Below, piece after piece: positions 592 to 58,052 of a DNA stretch of 64,000 bases. The DNA lies in sequence record NC_019500.1, one strand, 5' to 3'. This stretch comes from Escherichia phage Bp7. Each line of letters starts with the position of its first letter. The stretch's first letter is position 1. The notes below the pieces were generated by a model. The model saw nothing but the letters and a program-made list of their open reading frames with translations, ran no database searches and was not told where the DNA came from. Position numbers and translations under genes: made by a program.

Positions 592-1308
592 TTATTGAGG
601 CTTCATTTTACAGTTATCGAAATGCCAACGATTCATATTACCGGAATTCCCTTGTTTACCACAATGAGGGCATTCTACCTTCTTTTCTGATTTTTTGCGC
701 CCGTTAGGATTTTTCTTACAAAAAACTTTATGAGCCGCAATAACACAGGATTTTCCTGAAAGGCCGCAGAATTCACATTCCACAATTTTATAGACCATGT
801 TTTCTAGGCCTTTCTTTATTTTTAATTTTTGCTCCTCAGATATAGAGCGGTCCACTTTATTAGGGCCTTTAGGGCAGTTATCGAAATGCCATCTGTTCAT
901 ATTGCCTACCAATCCAGTTTTACCGCAGTGTGGACAGGTAACTCTAGGCTTTTTTAAAGCGGAAATTGACATTTTCTTTCTGGTTTCTTCCGAGAATTCT
1001 TTATCCTTTTGGACTTCTGAATTCTTACGACGAAGCCATCCAAATAATTTATTTTTAGACCTATCAGCTTTTGGTGAGCTAACTGTCATCATTCTTGCTG
1101 CATAGACTAACGATGCATTATCTGGATGGATTTTAACTAACAACTGATGAGCCAAGTAATGTTCTTCAGGTGTTAAGTCTACCAAGTTTAAAGCGTCGTC
1201 CGTTCCACCCATGCATTGTGGTATAATGTGATGACGTTCTTTATAGGTAGTTAAATTTCTATTAACTGCTCGTTGAATAAGCTTTTCGTATATTGATTTA
1301 TAATTCAT
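592..1308 (-). CDS. HNH homing endonuclease (Mob-like) with repeated C-terminal CPHCGK...NMNRWHFDNC zinc-finger-like motifs
   Basis: ORF track 592..1314 begins on TTG; the first ATG is at 1308 behind an AAGGA RBS; HHIIPQCMGG motif; inserted between 46 and 45.2. Confidence 0.65.
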   Translation of the reverse strand: MNYKSIYEKLIQRAVNRNLTTYKERHHIIPQCMGGTDDALNLVDLTPEEHYLAHQLLVKIHPDNASLVYAARMMTVSSPKADRSKNKLFGWLRRKNSEVQKDKEFSEETRKKMSISALKKPRVTCPHCGKTGLVGNMNRWHFDNCPKGPNKVDRSISEEQKLKIKKGLENMVYKIVECEFCGLSGKSCVIAAHKVFCKKNPNGRKKSEKKVECPHCGKQGNSGNMNRWHFDNCKMKPQ

Positions 1309-1344
1309 TATCAAATCCTTATTTGATACAGCGACCGATAAAGA

Positions 1345-1352
1345 TATTTATA
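1345..1352 (-). promoter_or_regulatory. T4-type late promoter (TATAAATA) upstream of the minus-strand HNH gene
   Basis: Reverse complement of tatttata at 1345-1352, about 35 nt upstream of the ATG at 1308. Confidence 0.35.
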
Positions 1353-1546
1353 TGGCTTCCAATTTTATAACAGGCCAGCATTTGTTGGCCGTTCCTGAAC
1401 TAAAGCGGTATGTTTTAGTTAATAACTTCTCTGGAGACGAACATCTTGTTACTGAAGATTATCTCCGAAATGCTTTTAAGTCAGAGTATGATAGAATCAT
1501 GTCGAACAGGAATCCTGCCTGGTTCGTTTATGAATACTTTGATTAA
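1352..1546 (+). CDS. small hypothetical protein, positional equivalent of T4 45.2
   Basis: 64-aa ORF between gene 46 and rpbA. Confidence 0.4.
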   Translation: MASNFITGQHLLAVPELKRYVLVNNFSGDEHLVTEDYLRNAFKSEYDRIMSNRNPAWFVYEYFD

Positions 1547-1552
1547 ATTAAG

Positions 1553-1576
1553 TGCTTTAAAATATTGATTTATAAT
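1553..1576 (+). promoter_or_regulatory. MotA-dependent middle promoter (MotA box TGCTTTA, 11-bp spacer, TATAAT)
   Basis: tgcttta at 1553-1559 and tataat at 1571-1576, upstream of rpbA/45. Confidence 0.4.
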
Positions 1577-1606
1577 ACATCTACCAACCAAATGAGAGAA
1601 AATATT

Positions 1607-2048: not shown

Positions 2049-2747
2049 ATGAAATTCTCTAAAGAAACTCTGAACATTCTGAAAAACTTCTCCGGTATTA
2101 ACCCAGGTATCATGCTTAAACCTGGTAACACTATTCTAACTCGTTCAGTAACGGGTGCAAGTTATGGTGAAGCTACTGTAAATGACACCTTTGATATCGA
2201 AGCCGCAATCTACGACCTGAACGGCTTCTTAAGTATTCTGTCATTGGTATCTGATAGTGCTGAAGTTTCGGTAAGTGAAGACCAAACCACCTTAATTATT
2301 AAAGACCAACGTTCAACTATTAAATGGCCTATTGCCGACCCAAGTACAATTGCATTCCCAAGCAAAGCTATTCCATTCCCGGTGGCTGAAGTTATTTTCG
2401 ACCTTAAAGCCGAAGATTACCAACAGTTGATGCGTGTGTCCTCTGGATTGAGTATTGATACATTTGCTATCACTGTAGACAACGGTAAAATTGTAATCAA
2501 TGGCTACAAACAAGTTGATGATAAGGACCTGGCACGTCCATTGTATTCCTTAGTGGTTGCAGACCATGATGGTCCTGAATTCAAATTCATTATCAACAAA
2601 ACTAATATGAAAATGATGCCTGCCGATTACCATGTATTGTTATGGGCTCGTGGTGAAGGTCAGGACGCTCGTTTCGCAGCCAAGTTTGAAGGTTCACAAG
2701 CTTCTTATGTATTGGCTATGGAAGCAGGCTCAAGCCACTCGTTCTAA
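2049..2747 (+). CDS. 45: gp45 sliding clamp
   Basis: 232-aa ORF alignable along its length with T4 gp45 (T4 is 228 aa). Confidence 0.9.
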   Translation: MKFSKETLNILKNFSGINPGIMLKPGNTILTRSVTGASYGEATVNDTFDIEAAIYDLNGFLSILSLVSDSAEVSVSEDQTTLIIKDQRSTIKWPIADPSTIAFPSKAIPFPVAEVIFDLKAEDYQQLMRVSSGLSIDTFAITVDNGKIVINGYKQVDDKDLARPLYSLVVADHDGPEFKFIINKTNMKMMPADYHVLLWARGEGQDARFAAKFEGSQASYVLAMEAGSSHSF

Positions 2748-3325
2748 TGTATATATGTTATCATAATACGATAACCAACACTAAAACCAAGTGTGTCTAT
2801 CATTATTTTGGTAGACACCGTGTTACTGCTGAAGAATACTACGGTACAGGTAAGTTTGTTAAGAAATGCAAACGAGAAAATGCTATTACTCCAGGTCTTT
2901 GGGAGTTTTGTGTTGAAGTTATCCATACAGTGGATACGTTTAAAGAAGCCAAGATTATTGAAGAAGAGCTTGTTAAAGAAGGCATATCAAAATATGGTAT
3001 CCTTTGTGTTAATAAGAATCCTGGTGGTGATGGCGGTGTGGATTACCACACCGAAGAATCTAAACGTAAAATGTCAGAAACTAGAACAGGAAAATCAAGA
3101 ATATTTTCCGAAAGTCATAAAGAAAATTTAAGTAAACGAGCCAGAAAATACTCTGATGTTTGGTCCGAACCTGTATATTCAAATCTTAAAACCATTTGGC
3201 TGGAAACAGGTATGTTAAAACGCGGACGGTTTAGTACGCTTTTACAAAAATATGGGTATAATTATTCTGCGAATGAATTGAATAAAATTGTTAAACATTT
3301 TAATGAGGAAAATAATAATGAGTAA
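2747..3325 (+). CDS. GIY-YIG homing endonuclease (Seg-like) with NUMOD3-type repeats
   Basis: N-terminal YICYHNTITNTKTKCVYHYFG; repeats SKRKMSETRTGK and SHKENLSKRARK; start overlaps the gp45 stop (TAATG); inserted between 45 and 44. Confidence 0.55.
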   Translation: MYICYHNTITNTKTKCVYHYFGRHRVTAEEYYGTGKFVKKCKRENAITPGLWEFCVEVIHTVDTFKEAKIIEEELVKEGISKYGILCVNKNPGGDGGVDYHTEESKRKMSETRTGKSRIFSESHKENLSKRARKYSDVWSEPVYSNLKTIWLETGMLKRGRFSTLLQKYGYNYSANELNKIVKHFNEENNNE

Positions 3326-4295
3326 AGTAGTAAATGGTTTAACTATTAATGAAAACGACTTCATGTGGGAACAGAAATATCGTCCAGGTACTTTATCTGA
3401 GTGTATTCTGCCAGCGCATGATAAAGAAACCCTCCAAGCCATTGTTAATAAGGGTCTAATCCCTAACATTATCCTAGTCTCTGCTTCACCAGGCACAGGT
3501 AAAACTACCGTAGCTAAAGCATTGTGTGCTGATACAAATTCAGATATGCTTTTTGTTAACGGTTCCGACTGCCGTATTGATTTCGTTCGTAATGAACTTA
3601 CTCGTTTTGCATCTTCCAAATCTATCGAAGGTAAACGTAAGGTAATTGTTATCGACGAATTCGACCGCGCCGGTGTTGCTGAAGCTCAACGTCACCTTCG
3701 TTCGTTCTTAGAAGCCTATTCCTCAAACTGTTCTGTAATTATTACAGCAAACAATATTGATGGTATTATCGGTCCACTTCAATCCCGTTGTCGTGTTATT
3801 AAATTTGGTGAAGCCACTCCGGCCGACCAAACAACCATGATGAAAGAAATGATTCATCGTGCTGTAGCAATCTGTAAAAACGAAAATATCGAAGTCGAAG
3901 ACCTTAAAGTTATTGCTGCCTTAGTTAAACAAAACTTTCCTGACTTCCGTAAAACAGTTAACCAACTGGACCGTTACTCATCCAGTGGTAAAATCGATAC
4001 AGGCATTTTGAGTATTGTAATGAATACCAATTCGCCTATCGATGAAGTAGTGGCTGCACTTAAAGATAAAAACTTTAAAGAACTCCGTGCATTAGCTCCA
4101 CGTCATGTCAACGATTATTCCAACTTTATTATGTCGCTGGCTAACGAACTCTATGGTAAATTGCCTGGGCCAAGCATTGTTAGAATGTACGAAATTGTCG
4201 GTGAAAATAACCAATACCACGGTATTGCGGCTAACCCAGAAATTCACATGACTTATCTGTTCATCCAACTTGCTCTGGAGCTCCAATGGCTATAA
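3318..4295 (+). CDS. 44: gp44 clamp-loader large subunit (AAA+)
   Basis: Walker A SPGTGKTT, VIVIDEFDR, SRC motif; matches T4 gp44; ATG at 3318 after a GAGGAAA RBS. Confidence 0.9.
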   Translation: MSKVVNGLTINENDFMWEQKYRPGTLSECILPAHDKETLQAIVNKGLIPNIILVSASPGTGKTTVAKALCADTNSDMLFVNGSDCRIDFVRNELTRFASSKSIEGKRKVIVIDEFDRAGVAEAQRHLRSFLEAYSSNCSVIITANNIDGIIGPLQSRCRVIKFGEATPADQTTMMKEMIHRAVAICKNENIEVEDLKVIAALVKQNFPDFRKTVNQLDRYSSSGKIDTGILSIVMNTNSPIDEVVAALKDKNFKELRALAPRHVNDYSNFIMSLANELYGKLPGPSIVRMYEIVGENNQYHGIAANPEIHMTYLFIQLALELQWL

Positions 4296-4863: not shown

Positions 4864-5226
4864 ATGATTGAAATTACTCTGAAACAACCTGAAGACTTCT
4901 TGAAAGTGAAAGAGACCCTAACTCGTATGGGTATCGCTAATAATAAAGAAAAGAAACTATATCAATCCTGCCACATTCTGCAAAAGCAAGGGCTGTATTA
5001 TATAGTCCACTTTAAAGAGATGTTACGTATGGATGGTCGCCAAGTTGATATCGATGGTGAAGACTATCAACGTCGAGATTCAATTGCCCAGCTTCTTAAG
5101 GAGTGGGGACTGATTGATATTGTAGATGAATCTGAACTGTTCGAAATCACCAATAACTTCCGTGTCATTTCCTTTAAGCAGAAAAATGACTGGGAACTAC
5201 TGTCTAAGTACACCATTGGTAATTAA
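4864..5226 (+). CDS. regA: RegA translational repressor
   Basis: 120 aa; MIEITLKQPEDFLKVKETLTRMGIANNK is near-identical to T4 RegA. Confidence 0.9.
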   Translation: MIEITLKQPEDFLKVKETLTRMGIANNKEKKLYQSCHILQKQGLYYIVHFKEMLRMDGRQVDIDGEDYQRRDSIAQLLKEWGLIDIVDESELFEITNNFRVISFKQKNDWELLSKYTIGN

Positions 5227-5227
5227 T

Positions 5228-5443
5228 ATGATTCTTGAAATTGAAACGTGTGAACGTCTTAAAGAGGTATACGGACTTTCTCCAACTCAAACTGTTTTTG
5301 ACCTTTCCGAAGAGCTCCAAATAGAATTTCAAAAGGACCTCCATAAGTTGCTACATCCAGGTCAGAAAGTCTTCCAGGCTATGATTAAAACTAAAGACGA
5401 AGATGGTAATTCAACCATTAAACGTCAAACAATAGAAATTTAA
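5228..5443 (+). CDS. small hypothetical protein between regA and 43
   Basis: 71-aa ORF with its ATG directly after the regA stop. Confidence 0.3.
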   Translation: MILEIETCERLKEVYGLSPTQTVFDLSEELQIEFQKDLHKLLHPGQKVFQAMIKTKDEDGNSTIKRQTIEI

Positions 5444-5446: not shown

Positions 5447-5468
5447 AAGGGACTTCGGTCCCTTTTGG
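5447..5468 (+). terminator. UUCG-tetraloop hairpin followed by a U-run (intrinsic terminator or gene 43 leader structure)
   Basis: aagggacTTCGgtccctttt. Confidence 0.45.
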
Positions 5469-5524
5469 AGTATAATGATTCATCAACAAACAAAAGACAA
5501 TCACTCGTCTATAAAGGAAATGAA

Positions 5525-8236
5525 ATGCAAGAATTCTATTTGACAGTCGAACAAATCGGTGATAATATTCTCGAACGTTACATCGATAAAAATGGTAACG
5601 AACGTAGTCGTGAAGTTCCATACAAGCCTACAATGTTTATGCATGCTAATCCAGAGCAAGCCGTAAAATACATTGATATCTACGGTAAGGGTTGTGTTAA
5701 GAAAGAATTCGACTCTATGCGTGATGCATCCCAATGGATGAAACGTATGGACGATATGGGTCTCGAAGCCCTGGGTATGGACGACTATAAATTAGCCTAT
5801 TTGTCTGATACCTATCGTAAAGAAATCAGATATGATTCTTCTAAGATTCGTATTGCTAACTTCGACATCGAGGTAACATCTCCTGATGGATTCCCTGAAC
5901 CAGCTCAGGCTAAACATCCTATCGATGCCATTACCCACTACGACTCGATTGACGATAAATTCTATGTATTCGACCTTTTAGTTTCGCCTTATGGTACTGT
6001 TGAAGAGTGGTCGATTAAAATCGCTGAGAAACTCCAAGACGAAGGCGGTGACGAAGTTCCACAAGAAATCATTGACAAAATCGTTTATCTTCCGTTTAAT
6101 TCTGAAGAAGAAATGATGCTTGAGTACTTGAATTTCTGGCAACAGAAAACTCCTGTGATTTTGACTGGATGGAACGTTGAGTCGTTTGACGTACCATACG
6201 TTTATAACCGTCTGAAAAATCTGTTCGGTGAGAACACTGCTAAGCGATTAAGCCCACATCGTAAAACTCGTGTTAAAGTTATCGAGAACATGTACGGTGC
6301 TCGTGAAATCATTACATTGTTCGGTATCTCTGTTCTGGATTATATCGACCTGTATAAAAAATTCAGCTTTACCAACCAGCCTTCTTATTCTCTGGATTAT
6401 GTTTCTGAATATGAATTGAAAGTAGGTAAGTTGAAATATGATGGCCCAATCTCCAAGTTACGTGAGACGAACCACCAACGATATATTTCCTATAACATTA
6501 TCGACGTATATCGTGTAGTGCAGATTGATATGAAGCGTCAGTTCATTCTTCTGAGTTTGGACATGGGTTATTATGCCAAGATGCAGATTCAGTCGGTGTT
6601 CAGCCCAATTAAGACTTGGGACGCTATTATCTTTAATAGCCTTAAAGAACAAGGCAAGGTAATTCCACAAGCTCGCTCACACGTGGTCCAACCTTATCCT
6701 GGTGCTTTCGTTAAGGAACCGATTCCTAACGCTTACAAATATGTAATGAGTTTCGACCTTACATCTCTGTATCCGAGTATCATTCGACAAGTGAATATAA
6801 GCCCAGAGACCATCGCAGGGACATTCGCTAACGCACCGATACATGAATATATTGCCGGAACTGCTCAGCGTCCTAGCGACACCTACAGTTGCTCTCCTAA
6901 CGGCATGATGTACTATAAAGACCGTGAAGGTGTGATTCCGACAGAAATCACCAAGGTATTCTTGCAGCGTAAAGAACATAAAGGTTACATGCTTGCAGCT
7001 CAACGTAATGGTGAGTTAATTAAAGAAGCATTGGAAAATCCTAATCTCTCAGTTGATAGTCCACTGGATATCGATTATCGTTTTGACTTCTCTGACGAAA
7101 TCAAAGCCCAGATTAAAGCACTGTCAGCGCCTTCTTTAAGAGAAATGTTGAAGAAAGCCGAGCTCACTGAAGTTGCAGGTAACACTGCTCAGATTAACCG
7201 TAAGTTGCTTATCAACTCCCTTTACGGTGCACTTGGTAACGTATGGTTCCGTTACTATGACCTCAGGAACGCAACTGCAATCACACTGTTTGGTCAAATG
7301 GCCCTCCAATGGATTGAACGTAAGGTTAACGAATATCTGAATAGCGTGTGTAAGACTGAAAATCAGAAGTTCGTGCTCTATGGTGATACTGACTCCATTT
7401 ATGTTAAGGCAGATGCAATCATCAATAAAGTAGGCGAAGATAAATTCCGTGACACTAACCACTGGGTCGACTTCTTAGATAAATTTGCACGTGAACGTAT
7501 GGAACCAGCTATTGATGCAGGCTTCCGTGAGATGTGTGAGTACATGAACAACAAACAACACTTGATGTTCATGGACCGAGAAGCTATCGCTGGTCCTCCA
7601 CTTGGTTCTAAAGGCCTTGGTGGATTCTGGACAGGCAAGAAACGTTATGCACTTAACGTTTGGGACATGGAAGGTACTCGTTATGCCGAACCACACTTGA
7701 AAATCATGGGTCTCGAAACTCAGAAATCAAGTACACCTAAAGCAGTTCAGAAAGCTCTGAAGGAATGTATCCGTCGTATGCTTCAGGAAGGCGAGGCATC
7801 TTTGCAAGAATATTTCAAACAGTTTAATAAGGAATTTAACGAACTCGATTATGTAAGCATTGCAGCAGTATCCAGTGCTAACAACATCGAGAAATATAAT
7901 GAAGGTGGATTCCCTGGCTCTAAATGTCCGTACCACATCAAAGGTTGCTTAGCTTACATGCGTGCTTCTGCAGGTGATTTGACTATGCCTCGTATCGTTG
8001 ATGGTGAAAAGGTATATGTACTGCCGCTTAAAGAAGGCAACCCGTTCGGTGAAGCTTGTATGGCATGGCCGTCAGGTATTGAACTTCCGGTTCAGATTCG
8101 TGACCAAGTCCTCCGTTGGATGGACTACAACGTACTGTTCCAAAAGACCTTTATCAAGCCTCTGACTGGTTTTACTGAGTCCGCTAAAATCGACTACGAG
8201 AAAAAAGCAACATTATTTGACATGTTTGACTTTTAA
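5525..8236 (+). CDS. 43: gp43 DNA polymerase (family B) with 3'-5' exonuclease
   Basis: 903 aa; Exo motifs FDIE and YNIIDV, polymerase motifs DLTSLYPSI, KILINSLYG, YGDTDS; start chosen at MQEFYLTVEQ (5525), not the upstream ORF-track ATG. Confidence 0.95.
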   Translation: MQEFYLTVEQIGDNILERYIDKNGNERSREVPYKPTMFMHANPEQAVKYIDIYGKGCVKKEFDSMRDASQWMKRMDDMGLEALGMDDYKLAYLSDTYRKEIRYDSSKIRIANFDIEVTSPDGFPEPAQAKHPIDAITHYDSIDDKFYVFDLLVSPYGTVEEWSIKIAEKLQDEGGDEVPQEIIDKIVYLPFNSEEEMMLEYLNFWQQKTPVILTGWNVESFDVPYVYNRLKNLFGENTAKRLSPHRKTRVKVIENMYGAREIITLFGISVLDYIDLYKKFSFTNQPSYSLDYVSEYELKVGKLKYDGPISKLRETNHQRYISYNIIDVYRVVQIDMKRQFILLSLDMGYYAKMQIQSVFSPIKTWDAIIFNSLKEQGKVIPQARSHVVQPYPGAFVKEPIPNAYKYVMSFDLTSLYPSIIRQVNISPETIAGTFANAPIHEYIAGTAQRPSDTYSCSPNGMMYYKDREGVIPTEITKVFLQRKEHKGYMLAAQRNGELIKEALENPNLSVDSPLDIDYRFDFSDEIKAQIKALSAPSLREMLKKAELTEVAGNTAQINRKLLINSLYGALGNVWFRYYDLRNATAITLFGQMALQWIERKVNEYLNSVCKTENQKFVLYGDTDSIYVKADAIINKVGEDKFRDTNHWVDFLDKFARERMEPAIDAGFREMCEYMNNKQHLMFMDREAIAGPPLGSKGLGGFWTGKKRYALNVWDMEGTRYAEPHLKIMGLETQKSSTPKAVQKALKECIRRMLQEGEASLQEYFKQFNKEFNELDYVSIAAVSSANNIEKYNEGGFPGSKCPYHIKGCLAYMRASAGDLTMPRIVDGEKVYVLPLKEGNPFGEACMAWPSGIELPVQIRDQVLRWMDYNVLFQKTFIKPLTGFTESAKIDYEKKATLFDMFDF

Positions 8237-8238
8237 GT

Positions 8239-8268
8239 GTTTACATACCACAAGGAACGTGGTAGTAT
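8239..8268 (+). promoter_or_regulatory. early promoter cassette
   Basis: gtttac, 18 bp, tagtat, then cctatcaact and gaggaa RBS. Confidence 0.4.
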
Positions 8269-8298
8269 CCTTCCTATCAACTACATGAGGAAATTACA

Positions 8299-8535
8299 AT
8301 GGAAGCTTTAATCGTTAGTGCTGGTGTTTTAGGATTCGGTTCTCTGGTTATTATGTTCATCGGTTACTTTTTACCATGGATTCTGGCTCTTCTGCGAGGC
8401 ACTCGTAGTAATGTCGGAATTTTCTTCCTTAATCTCCTGTTAGGCTGGACGATGATTGGTTGGGTAGTGGCTTTAATCTGGGCCATCGTCGCTGAACGTA
8501 AATCAAACGCTCAAATCATTATTGTTAAACAATGA
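8299..8535 (+). CDS. imm: small two-helix membrane protein, Imm-like superinfection immunity candidate
   Basis: 78 aa, hydrophobic, GW...GW pattern; located between 43 and the 42-like gene as T4 imm is. Confidence 0.4.
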   Translation: MEALIVSAGVLGFGSLVIMFIGYFLPWILALLRGTRSNVGIFFLNLLLGWTMIGWVVALIWAIVAERKSNAQIIIVKQ

Positions 8536-8669
8536 AAATAATTATTTTATTTCTTATAATGGCCGCCTTTACCATTTACTGGGCAGTGGCAATTCCACCA
8601 ATGATTCCGACACTAATCATCGGATGGATTATTCTTATAGCACAAATTAAGTATAACTGTTTTAATTGA
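8532..8669 (+). CDS. small hydrophobic membrane peptide (45 aa)
   Basis: ATG overlaps the upstream stop (ATGA); MKIIILFLIMAAFTIYWAVAIPPMIPTLIIGWIILIAQ. Confidence 0.3.
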   Translation: MKIIILFLIMAAFTIYWAVAIPPMIPTLIIGWIILIAQIKYNCFN

Positions 8670-8676
8670 GGATATT

Positions 8677-9177
8677 ATGAAAAAGTTAATTATCGCAATG
8701 AGTATGCTCCTATCAGGTTGCGCAGTCCAGTACGGTGATGCAGTTTCGGCTGATGAAGTTGGTAAAGCTCGTATCGCAGCTGAACAGAAACAATTCGATG
8801 GCGAAATGAAATTCCGTGCAGGTTCAGGACTTGTGTATACCCGAGCTAATAATCAATGTGGTAATAACTGTGCAAAATATGCTCAACGAGAAATTGAATT
8901 CCAACGTGAACAAGAGTCTAAGCGTGAAGCGGTACTAGCCAAACGCCAGGCAGAAATGAAGCGCCAAGATGATTTGTATAAAAAGCAGAAACTGTATGCG
9001 ATGTGCGTAAACCATATCAATCTACAGATTTCTATCCATGAGGCTCGTTATTACGAAATGCTCGAAACCGAAAGCTTTGATAAGGCCCGTGATTATAAGA
9101 AACAAATCAATAAGCTCAAGACCAAAGTGCCGGCAGCAATAGAACAGTGCATCGAAATCGGTAAAGATAAGATTTAA
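8677..9177 (+). CDS. lipoprotein (signal peptide plus lipobox LSGC) with coiled-coil C-terminal part
   Basis: MKKLIIAMSMLLSGCAVQ. Confidence 0.45.
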   Translation: MKKLIIAMSMLLSGCAVQYGDAVSADEVGKARIAAEQKQFDGEMKFRAGSGLVYTRANNQCGNNCAKYAQREIEFQREQESKREAVLAKRQAEMKRQDDLYKKQKLYAMCVNHINLQISIHEARYYEMLETESFDKARDYKKQINKLKTKVPAAIEQCIEIGKDKI

Positions 9178-9180
9178 GCA

Positions 9181-9209
9181 GTATCAATTTATTAAAAATA
9201 GTGTATAAT
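9181..9209 (+). promoter_or_regulatory. sigma70-type promoter with extended -10
   Basis: gtatca, 17 bp, tgTATAAT, upstream of the nucleotidyltransferase-kinase gene. Confidence 0.35.
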
Positions 9210-9237
9210 GTACCTACATTCACTTGAGGAACAGATA

Positions 9238-10911
9238 ATGAAAAAGGTTGTTATTTTAGGCGCAGGTCTTGGCTCACGGTTGTATCCAATTACTAACGAA
9301 ATCCCGAAGGTATTGGTTAACTACAAACAACATACAGTACTAAAACATTTGTATGATTTGTATAGTAACCAATCAGATGAAATCATTTTGGTAATTCATA
9401 GCAAATTTAATGACCTTGTTAAGGGTTACATTAAATCCATTAACATGATTACCAGTGATAAGCCTAAATTCATTATTCGTAACGTAGATGTTGCCAATGG
9501 TTCAGCTCATGCTATCGATTGCATTGCTGAAGATATCATCGGGCACAACGTCCTGTTTAACTGGTGTGACATCATTCCTGAGGGTCATAAAGTTGAGTGG
9601 GATAACGACTACTGTTATACCTACGGGACTGACTGTCGTTTTACATTTGAAGAACCGTATTTGCGTGAAATTGGTACCGGCGGTGGTGTGGTTGGTTTGT
9701 ATCAGGTGGCTAATTGGACAGGTTTCGACCGTTCTAATTATGGTGAAGACCTTGCCGACAACCTGGATTCGATGGTCTATTTGACTGAACGTAAGCTGGA
9801 CTTTGTAGTTGATGTAGGTGACAAACTGAAACTGGCTAAGGCCCATGAAGATTCCGAAATTAACCGTGAATTTAATAAATTAGAGTTCACTGAGAATCTG
9901 GCTATTAAAGTACCAACTAACGAATTAGGTAAAGAAATCCAATCTAAAGAAATCAATTGGTACAATTCTATTGATTCTGAATTCGTTCCGAGCATTGTAG
10001 ACTTTGCTCCAGGTGAATTCATTAAAATGGAACGTATCTTTGGACGCACCATGGCAGATGCCTACCGGTTTATGTCTAAAGAAACTAAAGTCCTCATGGT
10101 TTATAAGGTCATTAGTGCATTACGTTCATTTGGTGGAACCATCGATAATCCATCTGATGAGCAATGGTATTCTGATGTTAAGAAAGAAGTATTGGACAAG
10201 GTCCTTATTCGTAATGCTTCTATTGCTGGATTGATTGAAGGCTTTGCTCCACAGGGCATTACCCATGTCAATGACTTTAAGGTAGGCGACCCGGAAAAAC
10301 TTCTTCGTCACGCCTTAGAAATTCTGTCTGAACATAAAGAACCGTACCAACTTATTCATGGCGACCCGCACTACAGTAATATTATGTTGTCGGACGAAGG
10401 TAATATTAAAATCATCGACCCACGTGGTTATTTTGGTAATAGTTCTAAAGGCCCTGCGATTTATGATGAAGCTAAGGTGCTTTATTCTATCGATGGCTAT
10501 GACAAATTTAACTCTGACCCTCTATGGGGTGGCTTAACTCGTAACGGAACTCGTGTATTCGTTGATATTGAAAAGGTTATGCCTTTAGATGATATTCCAA
10601 TGTGTACATTTAAGCACAAGCTCTGGATTGCTGTTATCTGGATGGCACTGGCAGGTTACTTTAAAAATAACCCTCTGAAAGCTCTGGGTGCTTATTACAA
10701 TGGGCTATATCAACTGAGTGTGCTGCTGAAGCGGCATCCTCGTAAGCGTAAGCTTATCACAGGTGAATTCGTCGATGAAGTTCGCGACCCTATCACGGCT
10801 CAAATTATCACTCGTTGTCCTGATAAGTGGGTTTTGCTTGACCAGGAAACTGGTGTAAAATATAAACCTACAGGTTCTACCGAACTCCACAAACAATGGA
10901 AGAAAATTTAA
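9238..10911 (+). CDS. bifunctional nucleotidyltransferase (N-terminal) / APH-like kinase (C-terminal) fusion
   Basis: N-terminal ILGAGLGSRL (G-x-G-x-R-L sugar-phosphate nucleotidyltransferase motif); C-terminal HGDPHYSNIMLSDEGNIKIIDPRG (Brenner-type kinase catalytic loop). Confidence 0.55.
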   Translation: MKKVVILGAGLGSRLYPITNEIPKVLVNYKQHTVLKHLYDLYSNQSDEIILVIHSKFNDLVKGYIKSINMITSDKPKFIIRNVDVANGSAHAIDCIAEDIIGHNVLFNWCDIIPEGHKVEWDNDYCYTYGTDCRFTFEEPYLREIGTGGGVVGLYQVANWTGFDRSNYGEDLADNLDSMVYLTERKLDFVVDVGDKLKLAKAHEDSEINREFNKLEFTENLAIKVPTNELGKEIQSKEINWYNSIDSEFVPSIVDFAPGEFIKMERIFGRTMADAYRFMSKETKVLMVYKVISALRSFGGTIDNPSDEQWYSDVKKEVLDKVLIRNASIAGLIEGFAPQGITHVNDFKVGDPEKLLRHALEILSEHKEPYQLIHGDPHYSNIMLSDEGNIKIIDPRGYFGNSSKGPAIYDEAKVLYSIDGYDKFNSDPLWGGLTRNGTRVFVDIEKVMPLDDIPMCTFKHKLWIAVIWMALAGYFKNNPLKALGAYYNGLYQLSVLLKRHPRKRKLITGEFVDEVRDPITAQIITRCPDKWVLLDQETGVKYKPTGSTELHKQWKKI

Positions 10912-14647: not shown

Positions 14648-14969
14648 TTTATCTGATTTAGATAATTTTGTTAAAGATACCGAAGAGGGTCCTAGTGACC
14701 CTCGTTATTATGAGAAATCGTTAGATATAATCCGTAAGTCAATGGGTTCTGTTAAGCAGGAAATTATGCTTACTTTACCCGATGGCACTGCTCACATCGT
14801 TTATGTGATGAATATTGTTATTGAGAAAGATGGAAAAGTGTCGGTTGATTTCGGAACACCTTCCGAAGACCGAAAAGAAGAGCTAGCGCTTCATGTAGAA
14901 AAATGTGTTACAATGCAAATACAAGAAGAACTGGATAAAATTAAATCTAAGAGGTGGTGGAAGTGGTAG
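14640..14969 (+). CDS. 40: gp40-like head assembly protein
   Basis: 109-aa ORF between uvsX and 41. Confidence 0.5.
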   Translation: MTDLSDLDNFVKDTEEGPSDPRYYEKSLDIIRKSMGSVKQEIMLTLPDGTAHIVYVMNIVIEKDGKVSVDFGTPSEDRKEELALHVEKCVTMQIQEELDKIKSKRWWKW

Positions 14970-16793: not shown

Positions 16794-16988
16794 ATGTCTG
16801 AATCAATTAAAGTAAAATTTGTCGGCCATTTCGCCAACGGTGATACCGCTACCAAAGAAGCTTCAGTGCGTGAAAACGATATTGTGTGGGTGGCTACCCA
16901 ATTCGCTGAAGTCAATAGTATTCTAGTCAAGGCCTATGTCGACGACGTAGAAGTTTATGAACACGATGCTCGCATTGAGGAAATCTAA
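16794..16988 (+). CDS. dmd: Dmd-like antitoxin (inhibitor of RnlA/LsoA)
   Basis: 64 aa; VKFVGHFANG...VWVATQFAEVNSILVKAYVDD resembles T4 Dmd; position next to 41. Confidence 0.5.
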   Translation: MSESIKVKFVGHFANGDTATKEASVRENDIVWVATQFAEVNSILVKAYVDDVEVYEHDARIEEI

Positions 16989-20345: not shown

Positions 20346-20351
20346 TGGCAT

Positions 20352-20552: not shown

Positions 20553-20573
20553 GTTATCCTCCTGTTAAATTAA

Positions 20574-20581
20574 TATTTATA
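20574..20581 (-). promoter_or_regulatory. T4-type late promoter TATAAATA
   Basis: tatttata on the plus strand, about 22 nt upstream of the minus-strand ATG at 20552. Confidence 0.4.
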
Positions 20582-20584
20582 GCT

Positions 20585-41499: not shown

Positions 41500-41715
41500 A
41501 TGAACAAGATGAAAAATACCCAAAACGCTACCGTCCGTTTCGGTAAAGTTAAACCTGGCATGAATGCTAAACGTAAAGAACTAGTTGAAAAACTAAATTG
41601 GTTGGAAGTAGAGATAAATTCCTTAGTAGTTCGCGGCTCTAATGGTCGTGAACTGGAAAAACTCCGTGAAGGAAAAGCTGCTTTAATCGCCGAGATTAAA
41701 GACCTATCAATCTAA
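41500..41715 (+). CDS. hypothetical basic protein
   Basis: 71-aa ORF. Confidence 0.35.
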   Translation: MNKMKNTQNATVRFGKVKPGMNAKRKELVEKLNWLEVEINSLVVRGSNGRELEKLREGKAALIAEIKDLSI

Positions 41716-41726
41716 GTAATTTTTAC

Positions 41727-41747
41727 CAGAGCTCTTGAAAAAGAGCT
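41727..41747 (+). other. GNRA-loop hairpin (8-bp stem) between two cassettes
   Basis: gagctctt GAAA aagagctc. Confidence 0.3.
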
Positions 41748-41755
41748 CAAAATAA

Positions 41756-45157: not shown

Positions 45158-45949
45158 TTAATACTTTCGTATTATAACCAAGAGCCATAGATAGCGCCTG
45201 TAGCGCCCCACGTTGGAGACTTCCGAATACCGCTCTACCAGGAGCACCACCGCCAGATCTAGATAAGTGATTATCCCATCCTCTCCGCCCCGACCTCCAG
45301 CATCACCGCCATTGCCTCCGCCGAATTGGGAAGTGTAACCGGCACCACCCGGGGCGTCATAACTAGCATTACCACCCGGCCAATTAACGCCGCCTCCACC
45401 GATGCCAAATGGTCTACCACCACCGCCACCTGCTGTAGCATTTGGCGCCCAGCTATTCTGTAATGACACTGCACCACCACCGCCGCCGCCTGATGCAATA
45501 ACGCCATAGTTCCAAATACGAAGTCTTCCGCCGATATCATTTTGGATTACATCGCCGCCATTTGTGCCAGGGTTTCCGTTTACAGTACCGTTACCACCTC
45601 GTCCCCACATATGAACTCCACCATGAATATTCAAAGTAACATATTCGTTAGGGGTATCACCGTACATAAAGAACAATGGAACATCTTTAGTATATGATAC
45701 TAAGTTGCCTGTGATATTAAACACTATAGGAGCACCACCAGCTTCAAAACAACGGTCTCTAAACCACTGCCCGTTAAAGTTATGGTCTGCTCCGAGCGTG
45801 TGAATAATCTCACGAGACCGACCTGCAAATTGAGACATCCAAGATGGGTTACCAAGACGCAATTCTCTAGAAGCGGCCGTCATCCAACGTTGACCTGTTT
45901 CAGCCACTGCTGATGTTCCAATCCAACCAGGAATTCCTACTACTGCCAT
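45158..45949 (-). CDS. 38: gp38 receptor-recognising adhesin, T2-type with glycine-rich repeats
   Basis: 263 aa; multiple GGGGG tracts separated by short variable segments; immediately downstream of gene 37. Confidence 0.7.
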
Positions 45950-45978: not shown

Positions 45979-48900
45979 TTATAATAATGATTTAATTAAT
46001 GCTTTCAATTCAGCAATTTCAGATTTCAATTCCTTGATTTCGTCAGTATGCTCATTGATAGTAGCAGTATTTAAACCGATAATACCGTTATAGTTTAAAC
46101 GAAGTAAGCCAGTCTCTTTATCTTCGGTCACAAGTTCAGGCAATACTTCTTGAACTTCCTGAGCAATTAAACCTGCTGACGGTTTAACTTCGTCAGTAAC
46201 AGAGTTTTTAAGCAGATAAGTATAACCACCTAAGAGTTTGGATTTCTCTTGAGCGTTATCAATAAGCTTAATTTCAGACTTACAACGAATATCAGAACGA
46301 ATATAAACGTCGTTAACATCAATGTTATCACGAACATACATACCAGCGTTAACGTTAAGGGCCACGTCGCCAAATGTCTGGGCAAGTCCGGCTCGAATAC
46401 TGAATACACCTTGGCCATTAGCATACATGTTGTATATACCATCGGATTCCCAGACCAATCCAGTGTCAGCGTCACCAATTGCTATGCATGGCCCAGTCCA
46501 GGCGGGTTCAACACCTACGCCAATACCCGCCCAACCCGAAACAATTCTTCCCGGGGAAGTAAACTGCCCGTTGGCCAAAAATTGATAAATCGCCGCAGGA
46601 TGACCACTTTCCGGGGTATTTTCTGATGAACGGACAATTATACAACCAGTACCCCAGTCAGCATTACCACTGCGTAACGAGCCTAGTTCTACGCTTGTGT
46701 GATATCCATGCCCTGCTGAAGAACTTCGTCCTTTAATAATAGGATAGTACACGTTCCCGTTTAATTCGCCGTGTTCTACAAATATAGGGGCTTCAAGGCC
46801 ATACTGTGGATTAATAGCCCCAGCGTTTTGAGAGACCCATCTAGTAGCATTAACGTACATGCGGTTTTGGCTCATATTAACCAAACCAAACCCGCCCGGG
46901 CTAAATCCGATTGTCCTGTTATCTGATAAATCAATACCGGTAGTTGTTTTGTAGTTATAAAAAGATACTGAACCGCTTTCACCACCTTTACCAACAAACC
47001 AACTATTAGCACCACCAACTTCTGAACGAATATGCGAACTATTAGTGGCATTAGGTGCTCTAATTACTAAAGCATCATCGGCCGCAGCAATAGTCAGCTT
47101 ACCGGTCATCGTGTCACCTTCTTTAGAAACACGAGTAGCTATTGCATCACGAATGTTAGTTATATTACCTGCACCATTAAATCCGTTCCAAATGTCAGAG
47201 AAAATATTACCATTTCCAGCAATAATAGCTTTGCCGCCGCCGACCTCCACGTGTTCCGGGAAGTTAACTGTACCGTCAGCATTAAATCTTGAGGTATGAC
47301 CTCCGGTCCCGTCTTCTTTTAAATGATGTAAAACAAAAGTACCAGATTCTATTTCAGTACCTAAAGACCAAACTGCTTTTCCTTGTAAGAATTTCTGCTT
47401 GACAATAGGATAATATTTACTTACTGCGTCATCATCGATTTCCTGGAAAATAGGAGCTGCTTGAACATATTGAATATCATATCCACCGGCACCGGCGCCG
47501 TGACCAGTAAATTTAATATACCCGTTTGCTGCGAACGTATTGTAACTTGATTGTAAATCTGGAATAGTAACTTTACCAGTATCTAAAGCCAAACTAAATG
47601 GACGAAGTGGTCCGATATCACCAGTTTTACCTTCGCCAAAGGCGGTAGGAATAATATGAAGACTTCCTTCCGAACGGCGGAAAATGGCACCGTAGTCGTC
47701 GTTCCAAATTCTAAGGGCATTGACAGCATTACCAGCAATAGTACCGGATACGTTAACTTCTTCACCTACATTTATGCTTTCGTTTACACCTAAGGTGCCG
47801 TTTAAATGGCTTTGAATAGCACCTGAAGTCAGACGTTGATAATATTGAATCCAACTAGTGGCATCAGATATTTCCATTACGTTTTTGCGGTCACCTGCGA
47901 CATTAGTAAACGTATTACCCCATACAGAAATTGTCATATTATCAACTGAACTGCTACCAGTTGTGTTACCTCTAAACATCAGCGTAGAAGCATTATTTCG
48001 ACCATCAATATTAACCGAACCACCAACAACATCAATATTACCAGGAGTAACTAACAAACCGCCGTGAGTATTAACGTTTGTAGTACCTTTACCACGGAAA
48101 TAGTGGTGATAATTACCGCCTTGATAATAACCTAAAAGAGTTTGTCCGTCACCTACCGCGTTATTATCATGATAAGTGACAACTGTCGCCAAAGCATAGT
48201 TTTCCGACGGAGGAGTGGTTAAATCGGTACCGTTTACAGAATAACCCATAACCATTTTTCTAAGACTGGTGGTTTCTGCCGGGCCGCTCAGGAAAGTTCT
48301 TGTGCCGTTGTTTACACTAAAGAAATAACCATCTTGGTGCCATTGTAAGCCGGTATCATTATCACCAAGAGCAATTGAAGCCGTTCCTAATTCAGAATAT
48401 CCTTTAGAGCCACCTGGAAGACCTACAGAAATAGAATGACCTGCTTTCAATCCGCCCGACCATGTAAATGACCAAAGATAGGCGTCTAATCCATCTCCAG
48501 CATACCAGGTTATTCCATCATTATCTTTAACTTCATGGAAAATGCCCGAACCAACTGCATTTCGCATAACACGGAGATGGTTAATAGCTGTTTCACTTTC
48601 TGCCAATGGGGTATTATCGGCCAATGAATAGATATCATAATCTCCTGCAACTTTACCGTTGGTAATAACTTTATTGGTATAAATTACCGGAGTTGATACA
48701 GATTTCCATCCAAAAACTTCAGGAGAAGAAAACACACCATTGCCTGAAAACGCATAAGTGCTTTCGCCACTTGTCGCATAATCTTGTACGCGAATATTAA
48801 CTACCTGAGTGGTCGCTCCAGCATTATTTGGCGAAAAGATAATGCCACGTTCGCGGTTATTGCCATCGAAAAAACGAACATGTGATGTACTTGAACTTTT

Positions 48901-55228: not shown

Positions 55229-55259
55229 GGACCTCTCAACTACTTGAACAGAGGTTCAT

Positions 55260-56207
55260 ATGAACGATTTAGATTTTTTACTTCCTGAAGAAGACCAACA
55301 AAAAGATGGATTTTTACTCCTAGATTTCAGCCAAATCATTATGGCGGCGGCTTTCCAAGAGTTTGGTGAGAATGCTGGATTTCCTAAAGTAACTACCGCA
55401 ATGCTTCGACACCTCGTGTTGAATTCAATTAAGAAAAACATTAAAGACTTCCGTAAACAAGGTTACAACCAATTAATTATTTGTGTTGATAACTCCAAAT
55501 CAGGTTATTGGCGTCGTCGTTATTCTTCTTATTATAAGAAAAACCGTGCTAAGGCTCGTGACGAATCACCATTTGATTGGGAAGGTTTATTCACAGCAAT
55601 GCATATTATTGTTGATGAACTGGAACAAAACATGCCTTATATTGTTATGAATATCGATACAATCGAAGCTGACGACCATATTGCTGTTTTAACCCGAATC
55701 CTTACGGCTTTAGGCCACCCTGTTATGATTGGTTCTTCTGATGGTGACTTTACCCAACTTCATAAATTCCCTGGTGTAAAACAATGGTCCCCAATGCAGA
55801 AAAAATTCGTCAAAACAAAATCTGGTGATGCATTGCTTGATTGCGTGACTAAGGTTGTTAAAGGTGACCGTAAAGATAACGTCGCGAGTATTAAAGTTCG
55901 TGGTGATTATTGGTTGACCATGGTTGAAGGCGAGCGTACTCCTAGCACTCGTGCCAAGGAACTTGAAGCAATTGCTCTTAATTATTATGACCATGATATA
56001 ATTAAAACACTTCTTACTGAAGAACAATATGAACGTTTCTGTGAAAACCAAATCTTAATTGATATGGACTTTATTCCGGATGATATTGTTGCTTTAATTA
56101 CTGAAAGATATAATACGTATAACAAACCTTCGAAATCTAAAGTTTATCCTTATTTCGTTAAATCGGGTTTGTCTAAACTAACCGCTACAGTAGCTGATTT
56201 TTATTAA
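55260..56207 (+). CDS. rnh: RNase H (FEN-1-like 5'-3' exonuclease)
   Basis: 315 aa; LLDFSQI..., CVDNSKSGYWRR, IGSSDGDFTQLHK resemble T4 RNase H. Confidence 0.85.
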   Translation: MNDLDFLLPEEDQQKDGFLLLDFSQIIMAAAFQEFGENAGFPKVTTAMLRHLVLNSIKKNIKDFRKQGYNQLIICVDNSKSGYWRRRYSSYYKKNRAKARDESPFDWEGLFTAMHIIVDELEQNMPYIVMNIDTIEADDHIAVLTRILTALGHPVMIGSSDGDFTQLHKFPGVKQWSPMQKKFVKTKSGDALLDCVTKVVKGDRKDNVASIKVRGDYWLTMVEGERTPSTRAKELEAIALNYYDHDIIKTLLTEEQYERFCENQILIDMDFIPDDIVALITERYNTYNKPSKSKVYPYFVKSGLSKLTATVADFY

Positions 56208-56217
56208 GGTGAATATA

Positions 56218-56487
56218 ATGGCTAAAGAAAAAGTGAAAGTTGAATTCAATCAAGAAGAACATGGTAACACATTGGCACAACTGATTAAGTCTGCTTCCGA
56301 TACTAAATTAAAAATGGAAGCTTACGGCGACGAAATTAAAGATATCAAAGACCGTGCTAAGACTGAACTTGGCGTAGACGGTAAAATGTTTAACCAACTG
56401 TTCTCTCTGTACCATAAAGGCACTCGTGAACGTTTCGAAGACGAAAAAACTGAAGTGGTAGAACTGTATGACACAATCTTTGAATGA
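56218..56487 (+). CDS. dsbA: DsbA double-stranded DNA-binding protein
   Basis: 89 aa from ATG 56218; position between rnh and 33. Confidence 0.55.
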   Translation: MAKEKVKVEFNQEEHGNTLAQLIKSASDTKLKMEAYGDEIKDIKDRAKTELGVDGKMFNQLFSLYHKGTRERFEDEKTEVVELYDTIFE

Positions 56488-56770
56488 TTTTGATGGAGCG
56501 GTTAATACCGCTTCCGAACCTGTCCATGTGCTCGTAAACAAACAACAGAACGGTCTTGATATTGAGGCCTTTGTTGAAGCTGAAGGTTGTAGCTATCTCG
56601 AAGCGGCTACCGCATGGTTGGAAGAGAACAGCATCCCTGAAGGTAACTTTGCTCGTTATTTGCCTGCAGGAATTATTGATAAAATTATGAACGAAGCCAT
56701 TGATGATAACTTGCTTCGACCTTCAATGGCTCGAACGCAAAAAACTAATACTCTGGATTTCTTGTTATGA
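56468..56770 (+). CDS. 33: gp33 late-transcription co-activator
   Basis: 100 aa; LDIEAFVEAEGCSYLEAATAWLEENSIPE and C-terminal LLRPSMARTQKTNTLDFLL. Confidence 0.6.
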   Translation: MTQSLNDFDGAVNTASEPVHVLVNKQQNGLDIEAFVEAEGCSYLEAATAWLEENSIPEGNFARYLPAGIIDKIMNEAIDDNLLRPSMARTQKTNTLDFLL

Positions 56771-57420
56771 TTAAGATTCGCATGCCACCAAACAATAACC
56801 GTATGGTGAACGGCAAAAGTGTATATTCCCTATATTTGATGTTAAAGCATCATTTCAACGCCAAATACGACGTTATCAAATACAACTGGGTCATGCGAAT
56901 CTCTGATACGGCTTATCAAAAACGTCGTGACAAATATTTCTTTGAGAAATTGAGTGATAAATACACTTTGAAAGAGCTTGCTCTTATATTCATGAGTAAC
57001 TTGGTAGCTAACCAAGACGCATGGATTGGCGACATCAGTGATGCTGACGCCTTAGTCTTTTACCGAGAATATATCGGTAGACTTAAAAGAATAAAACAAG
57101 TTTTTGAGGATGATATCAAAAACATTTATTATTTTAGTAAGAAAGTGGAAGTTCAAGCGCTTTCTGAAATTTTTGATTATAATAAAAAAGTTAACTCGAG
57201 CTATATTTTTAAGCTCCTTCAATCGAATGTTATTTCATTCGAAACGTTTATTTTGCTTGATTCATTTATGGATATAATTGATAAGCACGATGAAAAGACT
57301 AACGATTTAGTGTGGTCTAAGTATTCGACTAAATTAAATGCTTACAAAAAAATTCTTATAGTAGATTCTATTGAGGCTCGTAAATTGTTCATTGAAACAA
57401 TTAAGGGTTGTAAATTTTGA
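56767..57420 (+). CDS. 59: gp59 helicase loader
   Basis: 217 aa; MIKIRMP...KYDVIKYNWVMRISDTAYQKRRDKYFF is near-identical to T4 gp59. Confidence 0.85.
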   Translation: MIKIRMPPNNNRMVNGKSVYSLYLMLKHHFNAKYDVIKYNWVMRISDTAYQKRRDKYFFEKLSDKYTLKELALIFMSNLVANQDAWIGDISDADALVFYREYIGRLKRIKQVFEDDIKNIYYFSKKVEVQALSEIFDYNKKVNSSYIFKLLQSNVISFETFILLDSFMDIIDKHDEKTNDLVWSKYSTKLNAYKKILIVDSIEARKLFIETIKGCKF

Positions 57421-58052
57421 ATATAGTTTATAAAATGACTTGGCTTAATCGTCAGGCTAATAATATTAAGCCGTTTTCGTACATAGGTTCTAAAACTAAT
57501 TGTACTTTTGAAAATGGCGTGATTATTGACTGTAAAGGTAAAGAGTATTGGACCTCTTGCGAGCAATCAAGATTTAAAGAGGCCATCGAAGAAGAAAAAC
57601 CTATTGTTGAAATTTTGGCTATAACGCCATTTGATATTGTTATTAATATTGAACGTTCAGAACAATTGGAAGTTCAAGCTAGAGATAATGATGATTATTT
57701 TAATTTGGTTTATGCCGGTGGCGGATTTGGAGTCTTTGGATGCACTCACCCAGCCAAACGTCCTGAAGTTAGAGCCCATATGAAAGCTGCTAACTATATG
57801 AATCAACCCGATTACCGTCCTTGGAAAACTTCTAGAGCAAACCCTTTAGATTGGATGCTTAGTGATATTGCTTATACTAATTATTGTATAATTAATTCTA
57901 GTGGAAGAGCTTGTGGATGGAGGCGTCTCATTAACTCTGGTATAAATGTTAGTGAAACTACATCAAAGAGTATGATTAAACAATTTAATGAGGGTTGGGT
58001 TCCTAATGATGACCCTGAATTCATTAAGTTAAAAATGCTTTATTCGAAGTGA
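57417..58052 (+). CDS. possible GIY-YIG homing endonuclease, SegG-like by position (between 59 and 32)
   Basis: N-terminal IVYKMTWLNRQANNIKPFSYIGSKTN; TTG start overlapping the gp59 stop. Confidence 0.35.
   Translation: MNIVYKMTWLNRQANNIKPFSYIGSKTNCTFENGVIIDCKGKEYWTSCEQSRFKEAIEEEKPIVEILAITPFDIVINIERSEQLEVQARDNDDYFNLVYAGGGFGVFGCTHPAKRPEVRAHMKAANYMNQPDYRPWKTSRANPLDWMLSDIAYTNYCIINSSGRACGWRRLINSGINVSETTSKSMIKQFNEGWVPNDDPEFIKLKMLYSK

Follow-up and report, generated by a model that had tools for sequence, protein, structure and literature searches.

The 64-kb early/replication region of Escherichia phage Bp7, a T4-like phage of the genus Dhakavirus (JS98 group) with a genome of 168,066 bp, raises the question of why five open reading frames (ORFs) resembling homing endonuclease genes lie between its core replication genes, and of what they have done to the sequences beside them. 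The region, which is the whole stretch of DNA analysed and is referred to below as the window, has a T4-like gene order: 46, 45.2, rpbA, 45, 44, 62, regA, 43 ... uvsX, 40, 41 ... 61 in its first part, ... 56, soc ... dda, dexA, motB ... 39, rIIA, rIIB ... 52, motA, asiA, t in the middle, and 38-34, rnh, dsbA, 33, 59, 32, frd, td in its last part. We consider it very probable that the five ORFs are free-standing homing endonuclease genes engaged in intronless homing, two of them encoding Mob-type HNH enzymes and three, including an orthologue of T4 segG, encoding Seg-type GIY-YIG enzymes. We infer their nuclease activity, their actual mobility and their target genes, which would be 46, 44 or the 45/44 spacer, 61/56, 39 and 32. 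The five proteins were compared locally with the products of all 15 homing endonuclease genes of the annotated T4 record, and the whole window was aligned with the matching regions of six JS98-group relatives (JS98, MX01, PSD2002, FB, IME281 and KIT01), to which its overall identity is 90-95% (megablast). All five endonuclease ORFs listed in an earlier note on this DNA were recovered, with matches to PHROGs families at E = 9e-17 to 9e-114, and the division made there into two HNH and three GIY-YIG genes is borne out by the T4 comparison, motif alignment, homologue columns and predicted folds. On careful alignment, the catalytic motifs are kept in all five proteins, with ICY/YFG variants in the one encoded at 2747-3325.

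The first HNH gene, of the Mob family, lies between genes 46 and 45.2 (592-1308, minus strand), antisense to its neighbours, and encodes 238 amino acids (aa). Its product matches phrog_655 (E = 2.6e-68) and is 46-48% identical to T4 MobE and MobB over a nuclease head of ~120 aa (blastp against MobE, E = 6.6e-30). The N-terminal HNH domain is followed by three CxxC...WHFDNC zinc-finger repeats, and the C-terminus is 33% identical to the C-terminal zinc-finger region of I-TevIII, with which it has CxxC...H..C repeats in common. The ORF could be extended to a TTG at 1314; the ATG at 1308 yields the family N-terminus MNY.... The protein is an exact match to Bp7 AEN93795.1, annotated as 'putative homing endonuclease'. 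The second HNH gene follows the primase gene 61 (19590-20345, plus strand, 251 aa) and is MobB-like, being 40% identical to T4 MobB over 168 aa (blastp E = 2.7e-40; phrog_655, E = 1.6e-52), with NUMOD3-like repeats in the C-terminal region as in MobB and MobD. Between the two proteins identity is 38% across the first ~116 residues, with no significant similarity beyond. The description of the pair in the earlier note, a common N-terminal catalytic region joined to different C-terminal modules, and opposite orientations, was accurate throughout; the modules are I-TevIII-like zinc-finger repeats in one and MobB/MobD-like NUMOD3-type repeats in the other, and the strands minus and plus. The HH..N..H motif is intact in both and corresponds column for column to T4 MobA-E (HHIIP.C.GG.D(3)N.V.(2)T..EH..AH). 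The pair thus resembles T4 MobB, MobE and MobD in its MNY...HHIIP.C.GG.D..N.V.LT..EH..AH head (40-48% identity) and in its modular construction from a common nuclease head and a different C-terminal DNA-binding region; the two sites, 46/45.2 and after 61, differ from that of every T4 mob gene. Among the T4 endonuclease genes, only segD is antisense to its neighbours (PMC2988022), as is the Bp7 gene at 46/45.2.

Among the GIY-YIG genes, the one between genes 59 and 32 (57417-58052, plus strand) had been regarded as the weakest call of the five; the comparison with T4 makes it instead the best supported. Its product is 59% identical to T4 SegG over the full 211 aa (E = 6e-88; phrog_7504, E = 9.1e-114), and T4 segG occupies the same 59/32 locus in the same orientation. 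The likeness extends to the N-terminal NIVY...YIGS and to a divergent 5' end of gene 32 in an endonuclease-free relative. The start differs: in T4 an ATG lies one base after the gene 59 stop, whereas in Bp7 a TTG overlaps that stop (TTGA at 57417-57420). The Bp7, IME540 and AnYang records give a protein of 205 aa from an internal ATG (57435), six codons downstream, and the FB, PSD2002 and LHE83 records one of 211 aa from the TTG. Use of the TTG at 57417 is needed for the N-terminal NIVY, the GIY motif conserved with T4 SegG, to be encoded; because the ATG start loses this motif, we propose that the gene most likely starts at the TTG, and that its annotation should be corrected.

The two remaining genes are, judged by sequence alone, the doubtful cases. 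The gene between 45 and 44 (2747-3325, plus strand, 192 aa) encodes an N-terminal GIY-YIG domain, one NUMOD3-like motif and a helical DNA-binding domain, and is on this criterion the weakest of the five. It matches a PHROGs homing endonuclease family at E = 9.2e-17, is 21% identical to T4 SegF (E ~1e-7) and has C-terminal similarity to MobD. A word-indexed search yielded only three close homologues, and searching 1.84 billion representatives with a profile brought up 280 proteins at E <= 0.001; the lineage itself is rare, with 24 phage records and two representatives at E <= 1e-30 among the 1.84 billion. In 50 aligned homologues Y5, G22, Y31, G33, G35, E72 and N89 are invariant, which is the Seg-type signature, and Pfam GIY-YIG or SegE_GIY-YIG is matched by 14 of the 50 (E <= 0.01) and NUMOD3 by 33. 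The family profile matched only the NUMOD3 linker of I-TevI among PDB sequences (E = 0.016). On this evidence, the protein, 'unknown' in the databases, is reassigned as a putative Seg-like GIY-YIG enzyme. The gene just upstream of topoisomerase gene 39 (30362-31042, plus strand, 226 aa) combines GIY-YIG with three NUMOD3 motifs above the Pfam cut-off; it matches a PHROGs homing endonuclease family at E = 3.5e-44 and has C-terminal similarity to T4 MobD (32%). Y10, Y19, Y32, E74 and N91 are invariant in 40 aligned homologues, nine of which match Pfam GIY-YIG or SegE_GIY-YIG (E <= 0.01). The label 'HNH endonuclease' that RefSeq and phrog_10820 attach to it is wrong in the light of this GIY-YIG family evidence. 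For both proteins the predicted folds give GIY-YIG nuclease domains as first match. The trio keeps the Tyr of GIY, the Tyr/Phe-Gly of YIG, and the Glu and Asn columns in alignment with I-TevI, I-TevII and SegA-G. The 45/44 and 39.1/39 proteins resemble T4 SegA-F and I-TevI in these columns (Tyr, Tyr-x-Gly, Tyr-Gly-Ser/Thr-Gly, Glu, Asn), in their NUMOD3 repeats and in a C-terminal helical domain; they differ from the T4 Segs in that identity is only 21-31% and that the sites of their genes are unused in T4.

No sixth endonuclease gene was found in the window when the five proteins were searched against all of its ORFs with phmmer, motif scans were run and ten unassigned ORFs were scanned against PHROGs. 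An ORF at 24522-25187 that looked endonuclease VII/HNH-like was rejected; it is Srd (phrog_1400, E = 2.3e-68) and is conserved in all relatives.

Are these genes mobile? In the alignment with the six relatives, the large, clean, gene-sized insertions/deletions (indels) of the replication module are exactly the five endonuclease ORFs. Their distribution is patchy: JS98 lacks all five, none of the six carries the full set and the other five hold different subsets, so that comparison with endonuclease-free relatives shows the genes not to be universal at their sites. Smaller variable segments of the module lie at 5227-5435, 16815-17362 and 28982-29232, and others in the tail-fibre and frd regions. 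The 46/45.2 gene is found in MX01, KIT01, IME281 and FB and is absent from JS98 and PSD2002. The cassette borders there, placed at 587-1361 by alignment with empty sites (588-1361 as the whole-window indel), enclose a unit that takes the place of the ATGA overlap between genes 46 and 45.2 in a base-level junction alignment; it contains a new gene 46 stop, a hairpin, the HNH gene, a late promoter, and a new start and first codons for 45.2. At 45/44 (indel 2754-3353) the carriers are PSD2002 and, in diverged form, MX01. The cassette starts at the gene 45 stop and takes the place of the 61-nucleotide (nt) spacer and of the ~10 opening codons of gene 44, leaving a rewritten gene 44 start (3318-3353, plus strand) that differs from the empty allele in the junction alignment; the endonuclease ORF overlaps the gene 45 stop (TAATG at 2745-2749) and, at its 3' end, the gene 44 start by 8 nt (ATG at 3318). 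The gene after 61 (indel 19590-20368) overlaps the gene 61 stop (ATGA at 19590-19593) and is inserted exactly between that stop and the stop of a small conserved antisense ORF; PSD2002 (99.6%) is its only carrier among phage records. At 39.1/39 the indel spans 30312-31034, from right after the conserved gene 39.1 terminator hairpin (30294-30309) to 8 nt into gene 39, whose start the endonuclease ORF overlaps by 8 nt. It includes a leader (30312-30361, plus strand) that was brought in with the endonuclease gene and replaces the normal spacer according to the junction alignment; among the six relatives, only IME281 has the gene, at 60-87% nt identity. At 59/32 the indel is 57419-58103, and the segG orthologue is present in FB, PSD2002 and others and absent from JS98. 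An overlap with the stop codon of the upstream core gene, which the earlier note had described for several of the genes, holds for three (after 45, 61 and 59) and not for the other two.

In a 100-nt identity profile against the relatives, four of the five genes are flanked by tracts of 0.3-1.2 kb that are sharply divergent in endonuclease-free relatives, with identities of only 61-87% where the background is about 92-97%. The last ~290 nt of gene 46 (287-586, plus strand), which adjoin the HNH gene, are 67-86% identical to endonuclease-free JS98 and PSD2002, against 93-99% just upstream, and 96-99% identical to the carriers MX01, KIT01 and IME281; we predict that the cleavage site or immune allele of the HNH enzyme lies in this tract. 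Endonuclease-free relatives fall to 67-80% identity over the last ~290 nt of gene 61 (19300-19589) and to 66-88% over the small ORF and gene 56 (20400-21200). The first ~1.17 kb of gene 39 (31035-32200, plus strand), next to the endonuclease gene, form a divergent allele that is 61-82% identical to JS98, KIT01, MX01 and PSD2002, with 85-99% after 32200; this is the predicted target or immune region of the enzyme encoded upstream. Beyond segG, the spacer and first ~250 nt of gene 32 (58104-58400, plus strand) are 72-87% identical to endonuclease-free JS98, versus 95-100% further on, and a published account gives gene 32 as the target of T4 SegG (PMC2988022, Table 1). Blocks of gene and flanks at least 99.5% identical are shared with PSD2002 (three) or FB (one) within less similar surroundings, in genomes otherwise ~92-95% identical. 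With PSD2002 these are 2651-3440 around the 45/44 gene, 19291-21240 around the HNH gene after 61 and 57301-58700 around segG; the block shared with FB is 56751-58440, also around segG. The tract at 19291-21240, apparently a transferred block, takes in the HNH gene, 0.3 kb of gene 61 and 0.9 kb downstream, the latter covering the small ORF and gene 56. Divergent flanks together with shared blocks form the pattern expected of double-strand-break repair with co-conversion; as comparative evidence, they are consistent with homing and support it without amounting to proof.

The same pattern might be produced by ordinary homologous recombination among co-circulating T4-like phages at hypervariable boundaries, with the nuclease genes as passive cargo, and the flank statistics bear directly on this. 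Against a background with a median identity to JS98 of 92% in 300-nt bins, an identity of less than 85% is seen in five of the ten endonuclease flanks and in 29 of the 187 bins of the background (15.5%); the Fisher test gives p = 0.015 with a single reference, which is a limited enrichment over ten flanks and leaves room for the passive explanation. Variable or divergent segments that contain no endonuclease gene (16815-17362, 21500-21900, 41503-41748, 46177-47101 and 59196-59533) speak for it as well. Against it stands that the inserted unit is the nuclease gene in all five cases, and that phages of other genera have homologues at the boundaries used in Bp7. Next to gene 46 they are found in Tequatroviruses of the RB51/RB32 type (63%) and, at 45%, in Enterobacter/Klebsiella phages; next to the primase gene in Yersinia and E. 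coli T4-like phages (55%, the next-closest homologues); and, at 62-80%, upstream of gene 39 in phages of Klebsiella, Enterobacter and Proteus. Moreover, T4 SegG has been shown experimentally to drive such biased inheritance (PMC2988022). We therefore regard passive carriage as very improbable, the least likely of the explanations considered here.

A number of observations weigh against five active homing endonucleases, some concerning the flanks and others the proteins. Tracts of divergence are not limited to the neighbourhood of endonuclease genes (examples lie at 21500-21900 and 59200-59500), and flank divergence is therefore suggestive rather than specific. FB has an empty 39.1/39 spacer (FB 4887-4954, compared with window 30312-32200), yet carries the Bp7-type gene 39 allele from the ATG on (99% over 1.1 kb); the gene 39 tract can therefore exist independently of the endonuclease gene, a point that also favours the passive-cargo explanation. 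As to the proteins, the HNH pair scores 12.8 and 14.4 bits against Pfam HNH (PF01844), below the gathering cut-off of 21.4; this model spans only ~25 residues of the divergent Mob subgroup, and the low score weakens the Pfam label, not the Mob-family assignment. Pfam GIY-YIG gives 10.6 bits or no match on the window proteins, below its gathering score, and a phmmer search of three of the five proteins against PDB sequences returned noise only. The equivalent of I-TevI Arg27 is not confidently placed in Seg-type proteins, since gaps interrupt the alignment of I-TevI with all Seg proteins in this region, those of T4 included; in the gapped alignment the 45/44 protein has RHR after YFG, and the 39.1/39 and 59/32 proteins show no obvious Arg. 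Finally, the motif of the 45/44 protein, 'ICY...YFG', is atypical and its gene lacks a long divergent flank; the enzyme could be inactive or cut elsewhere.

It can accordingly be asked whether one or more of the five is no longer an active nuclease, being a decaying relic or a domesticated DNA-binding protein such as an autorepressor or regulator, kept in place because essential neighbours now depend on signals within the gene. In its favour, defective members occur in T4 as well, namely mobA and I-TevIII (T4 annotation); the Pfam catalytic-domain scores lie below cut-off, and the 45/44 gene has a non-canonical ICY/YFG motif and no clear divergent flank. The retention argument applies at 45/44 and 39.1/39, where the ORFs overlap the starts of genes 44 and 39 and replace the normal upstream spacers, and deletion would therefore be costly whatever the nuclease activity; the same logic has been described for T4 (PMC2988022). 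Yet all five ORFs are full length, and the catalytic columns are invariant across distant homologues. The ratio of non-synonymous to synonymous substitution rates (dN/dS, Nei-Gojobori) is 0.19 for the 46/45.2 gene against FB and 0.05 in its nuclease head, 0.18 for the 45/44 gene against MX01 and 0.11 in its nuclease domain, and 0.11 for the 39.1/39 gene against IME281, both whole and in the C-terminal part, with the N-terminal domain saturated. Since dN/dS is 0.11-0.19 in the three measurable pairs, the proteins are under purifying selection and are not decaying ORFs; the range of 0.05-0.11 over the N-terminal nuclease domains of the first two argues that the enzyme has been maintained, and the blocks of at least 99.5% identity between genomes that are otherwise ~92-95% identical point to recent transfer. 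We consider it unlikely, but less so than passive carriage, that an inactive member is among the five.

Homing thus being the preferred reading, we propose the following course of events. In a mixed infection, each enzyme would cut the endonuclease-free allele of the neighbouring conserved gene in a co-infecting relative, the phage recombination machinery would repair the break with the Bp7 copy as template, and the repair would copy the endonuclease gene and several hundred flanking bases into the recipient. The flanks of Bp7 itself, having diverged, would presumably be uncuttable. Expression appears to be kept low and late. Scans for sigma-70 promoters around the genes gave counts at or below shuffle expectation, except at 30200-31100, where seven matches compare with 3.8 +/- 2.2 expected from shuffles, within ~1.5 standard deviations. 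The four sense-strand genes seem to be cassettes without promoters, transcribed by read-through from upstream genes, as has been reported for several T4 endonuclease genes (PMC2988022). Three of them, at the 45, 61 and 59 sites, appear to be translationally coupled to the upstream stop codon, the 59/32 gene with a TTG start.

The antisense HNH gene would be driven by its own late promoter and closed by a two-way terminator. A pattern scan finds the T4-type late promoter consensus TATAAATA at 1345-1352 on the minus strand, 37 nt upstream of the HNH gene ATG, within the inserted cassette and overlapping the gene 45.2 start codon on the opposite strand; a Shine-Dalgarno-like AAGGA is also present. 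Seven exact copies of TATAAATA occur in the 64 kb, and three of the six others stand just upstream of late structural genes or of another antisense ORF. Gene 46 and the HNH gene have convergent stops, and between these lies a hairpin (586-603, both strands; -13.0 kcal/mol on the plus strand and -10.6 kcal/mol on the minus strand, z ~ -4) that is absent from the empty sites, and is likely to be a two-way terminator introduced with the cassette.

Two situations in FB deserve separate attention. Its copy of the 46/45.2 HNH gene (FB 33262-33978, compared with window 287-900) has a nuclease head with 98% aa identity to that of Bp7 (dS 0.16), and a zinc-finger tail that differs from the Bp7 one (55% aa identity, synonymous sites saturated); the adjoining gene 46 end is only 70% identical at the nt level. 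Because the head is shared but the tail and the gene 46 end differ, the FB gene holds an internal recombination breakpoint at ~residue 150. An RB51-type Tequatrovirus was ruled out as the source of these two FB segments (47% aa and 71.6% nt identity). At least five alleles of the final ~290 nt of gene 46 exist, with mutual identities of 67-80%, next to sequence that is 95-98% identical. At 39.1/39, the FB combination described above would mean either that loss of the endonuclease gene followed the arrival of the allele or that the allele is older than the insertion. It is tempting to go further and to see the mosaicism of the Dhakavirus replication module as written mainly by the endonuclease genes, rather than by ordinary recombination, with the genes and their targets coevolving. 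We hold this to be possible though doubtful, and the same caution extends to the readings of FB that belong to it. If true, FB 46/45.2 would be a natural case of re-targeting, the binding module having been swapped in step with the target allele, and FB 39.1/39 a snapshot of endonuclease loss after fixation of an immune allele.

How unusual is Bp7 in this respect? T4 has 15 homing endonuclease genes, four of which (mobA, segF, segA and segG) lie in the region equivalent to the window, and five such genes are a high number for the genus and a normal one for the subfamily. Bp7 shows that a JS98-group phage can attain a T4-like endonuclease load in the replication region. The presence of the five genes, correctly recognised in the earlier note, was already known and is ordinary for this phage group: four of the five proteins are identical to proteins of the Bp7 record in an exact look-up, the fifth, the segG orthologue, being annotated shorter there, and four had been named homing or HNH endonucleases by at least one source. 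Earlier work has likewise described such genes beside essential replication genes and at exchange boundaries, and with modular heads and tails (PMC2988022, PMC10448857). What is new consists of three annotation corrections, the predicted target regions and the two FB observations; the result is mainly one of housekeeping, and illustrates that homing endonuclease genes are recognisable by tool-free sequence reading. Nuclease genes at boundaries of genetic exchange have been discussed as 'HEG islands' (homing endonuclease gene islands; Barth, Dunham & Seed 2023, PMC10448857). Like these, the Bp7 genes adjoin essential replication genes, coincide with breakpoints of near-identity blocks and show domain shuffling; the islands are more than 10 kb long and bracketed by two genes, whereas the Bp7 blocks measure 0.8-2 kb and contain the gene itself. 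In practical terms, the genes mark the sites at which replication-gene alleles will be exchanged when therapeutic or engineered T4-like phages take part in mixed infections.

Mosaicism in the window is not confined to endonuclease genes. Further segments that some relatives lack or that cannot be aligned with them, and that contain no endonuclease gene, lie at 16815-17362, 41503-41748, 45225-45586, 46177-47101, 59196-59533 and 61893-62179; they hold small ORFs after gene 41, a small ORF near gene 52, receptor-binding parts of gp38 and gp37, frd.2 and nrdA.1. The 61-56 interval has further occupants. The small antisense ORF beyond the HNH gene (20352-20552, minus strand) is conserved, hydrophobic and 66 aa long, with an exact TATAAATA late promoter at 20581-20574, 22 nt upstream; its stop overlaps the gene 61 stop in endonuclease-free relatives. 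In MX01 the space between gene 56 and this ORF is occupied by a dam methyltransferase gene and an ORF of 186 aa (MX01 14870-16209, against window 20552-20652), at a position where Bp7 and most relatives have nothing; T4 also has dam in the interval. The 61-56 interval is thus a hot spot that has taken up insertions of more than one kind.

Some irregularities concern the records themselves. Gene 46 (window 1-586) is not open in Bp7, owing to five single-base deletions (at ~142, 188, 393, 426 and 430) relative to all six relatives, mostly in short homopolymers and within sequence that is otherwise 96-99% identical. Because gene 46 is essential in T4, these frameshifts are most likely sequencing errors in the deposited Bp7 record. 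Damage linked to the endonuclease was rejected as their cause, similar deletions being found in srd and motB.1/motB.2, far from any endonuclease gene. In srd, a single-base deletion at 25092 relative to all relatives gives a protein of 221 aa instead of 244-249 aa, and single-base deletions at 28284-28461, again relative to all relatives, affect motB.2 at its end and motB.1 at its start. Together these point to indel errors scattered through the Bp7 record. The DNA polymerase gene 43, a single ORF in Bp7 (5465-8236), is annotated in PSD2002 (6392-9333) as two ORFs with a 218-nt gap, which may be either a frameshift error or a real interruption.

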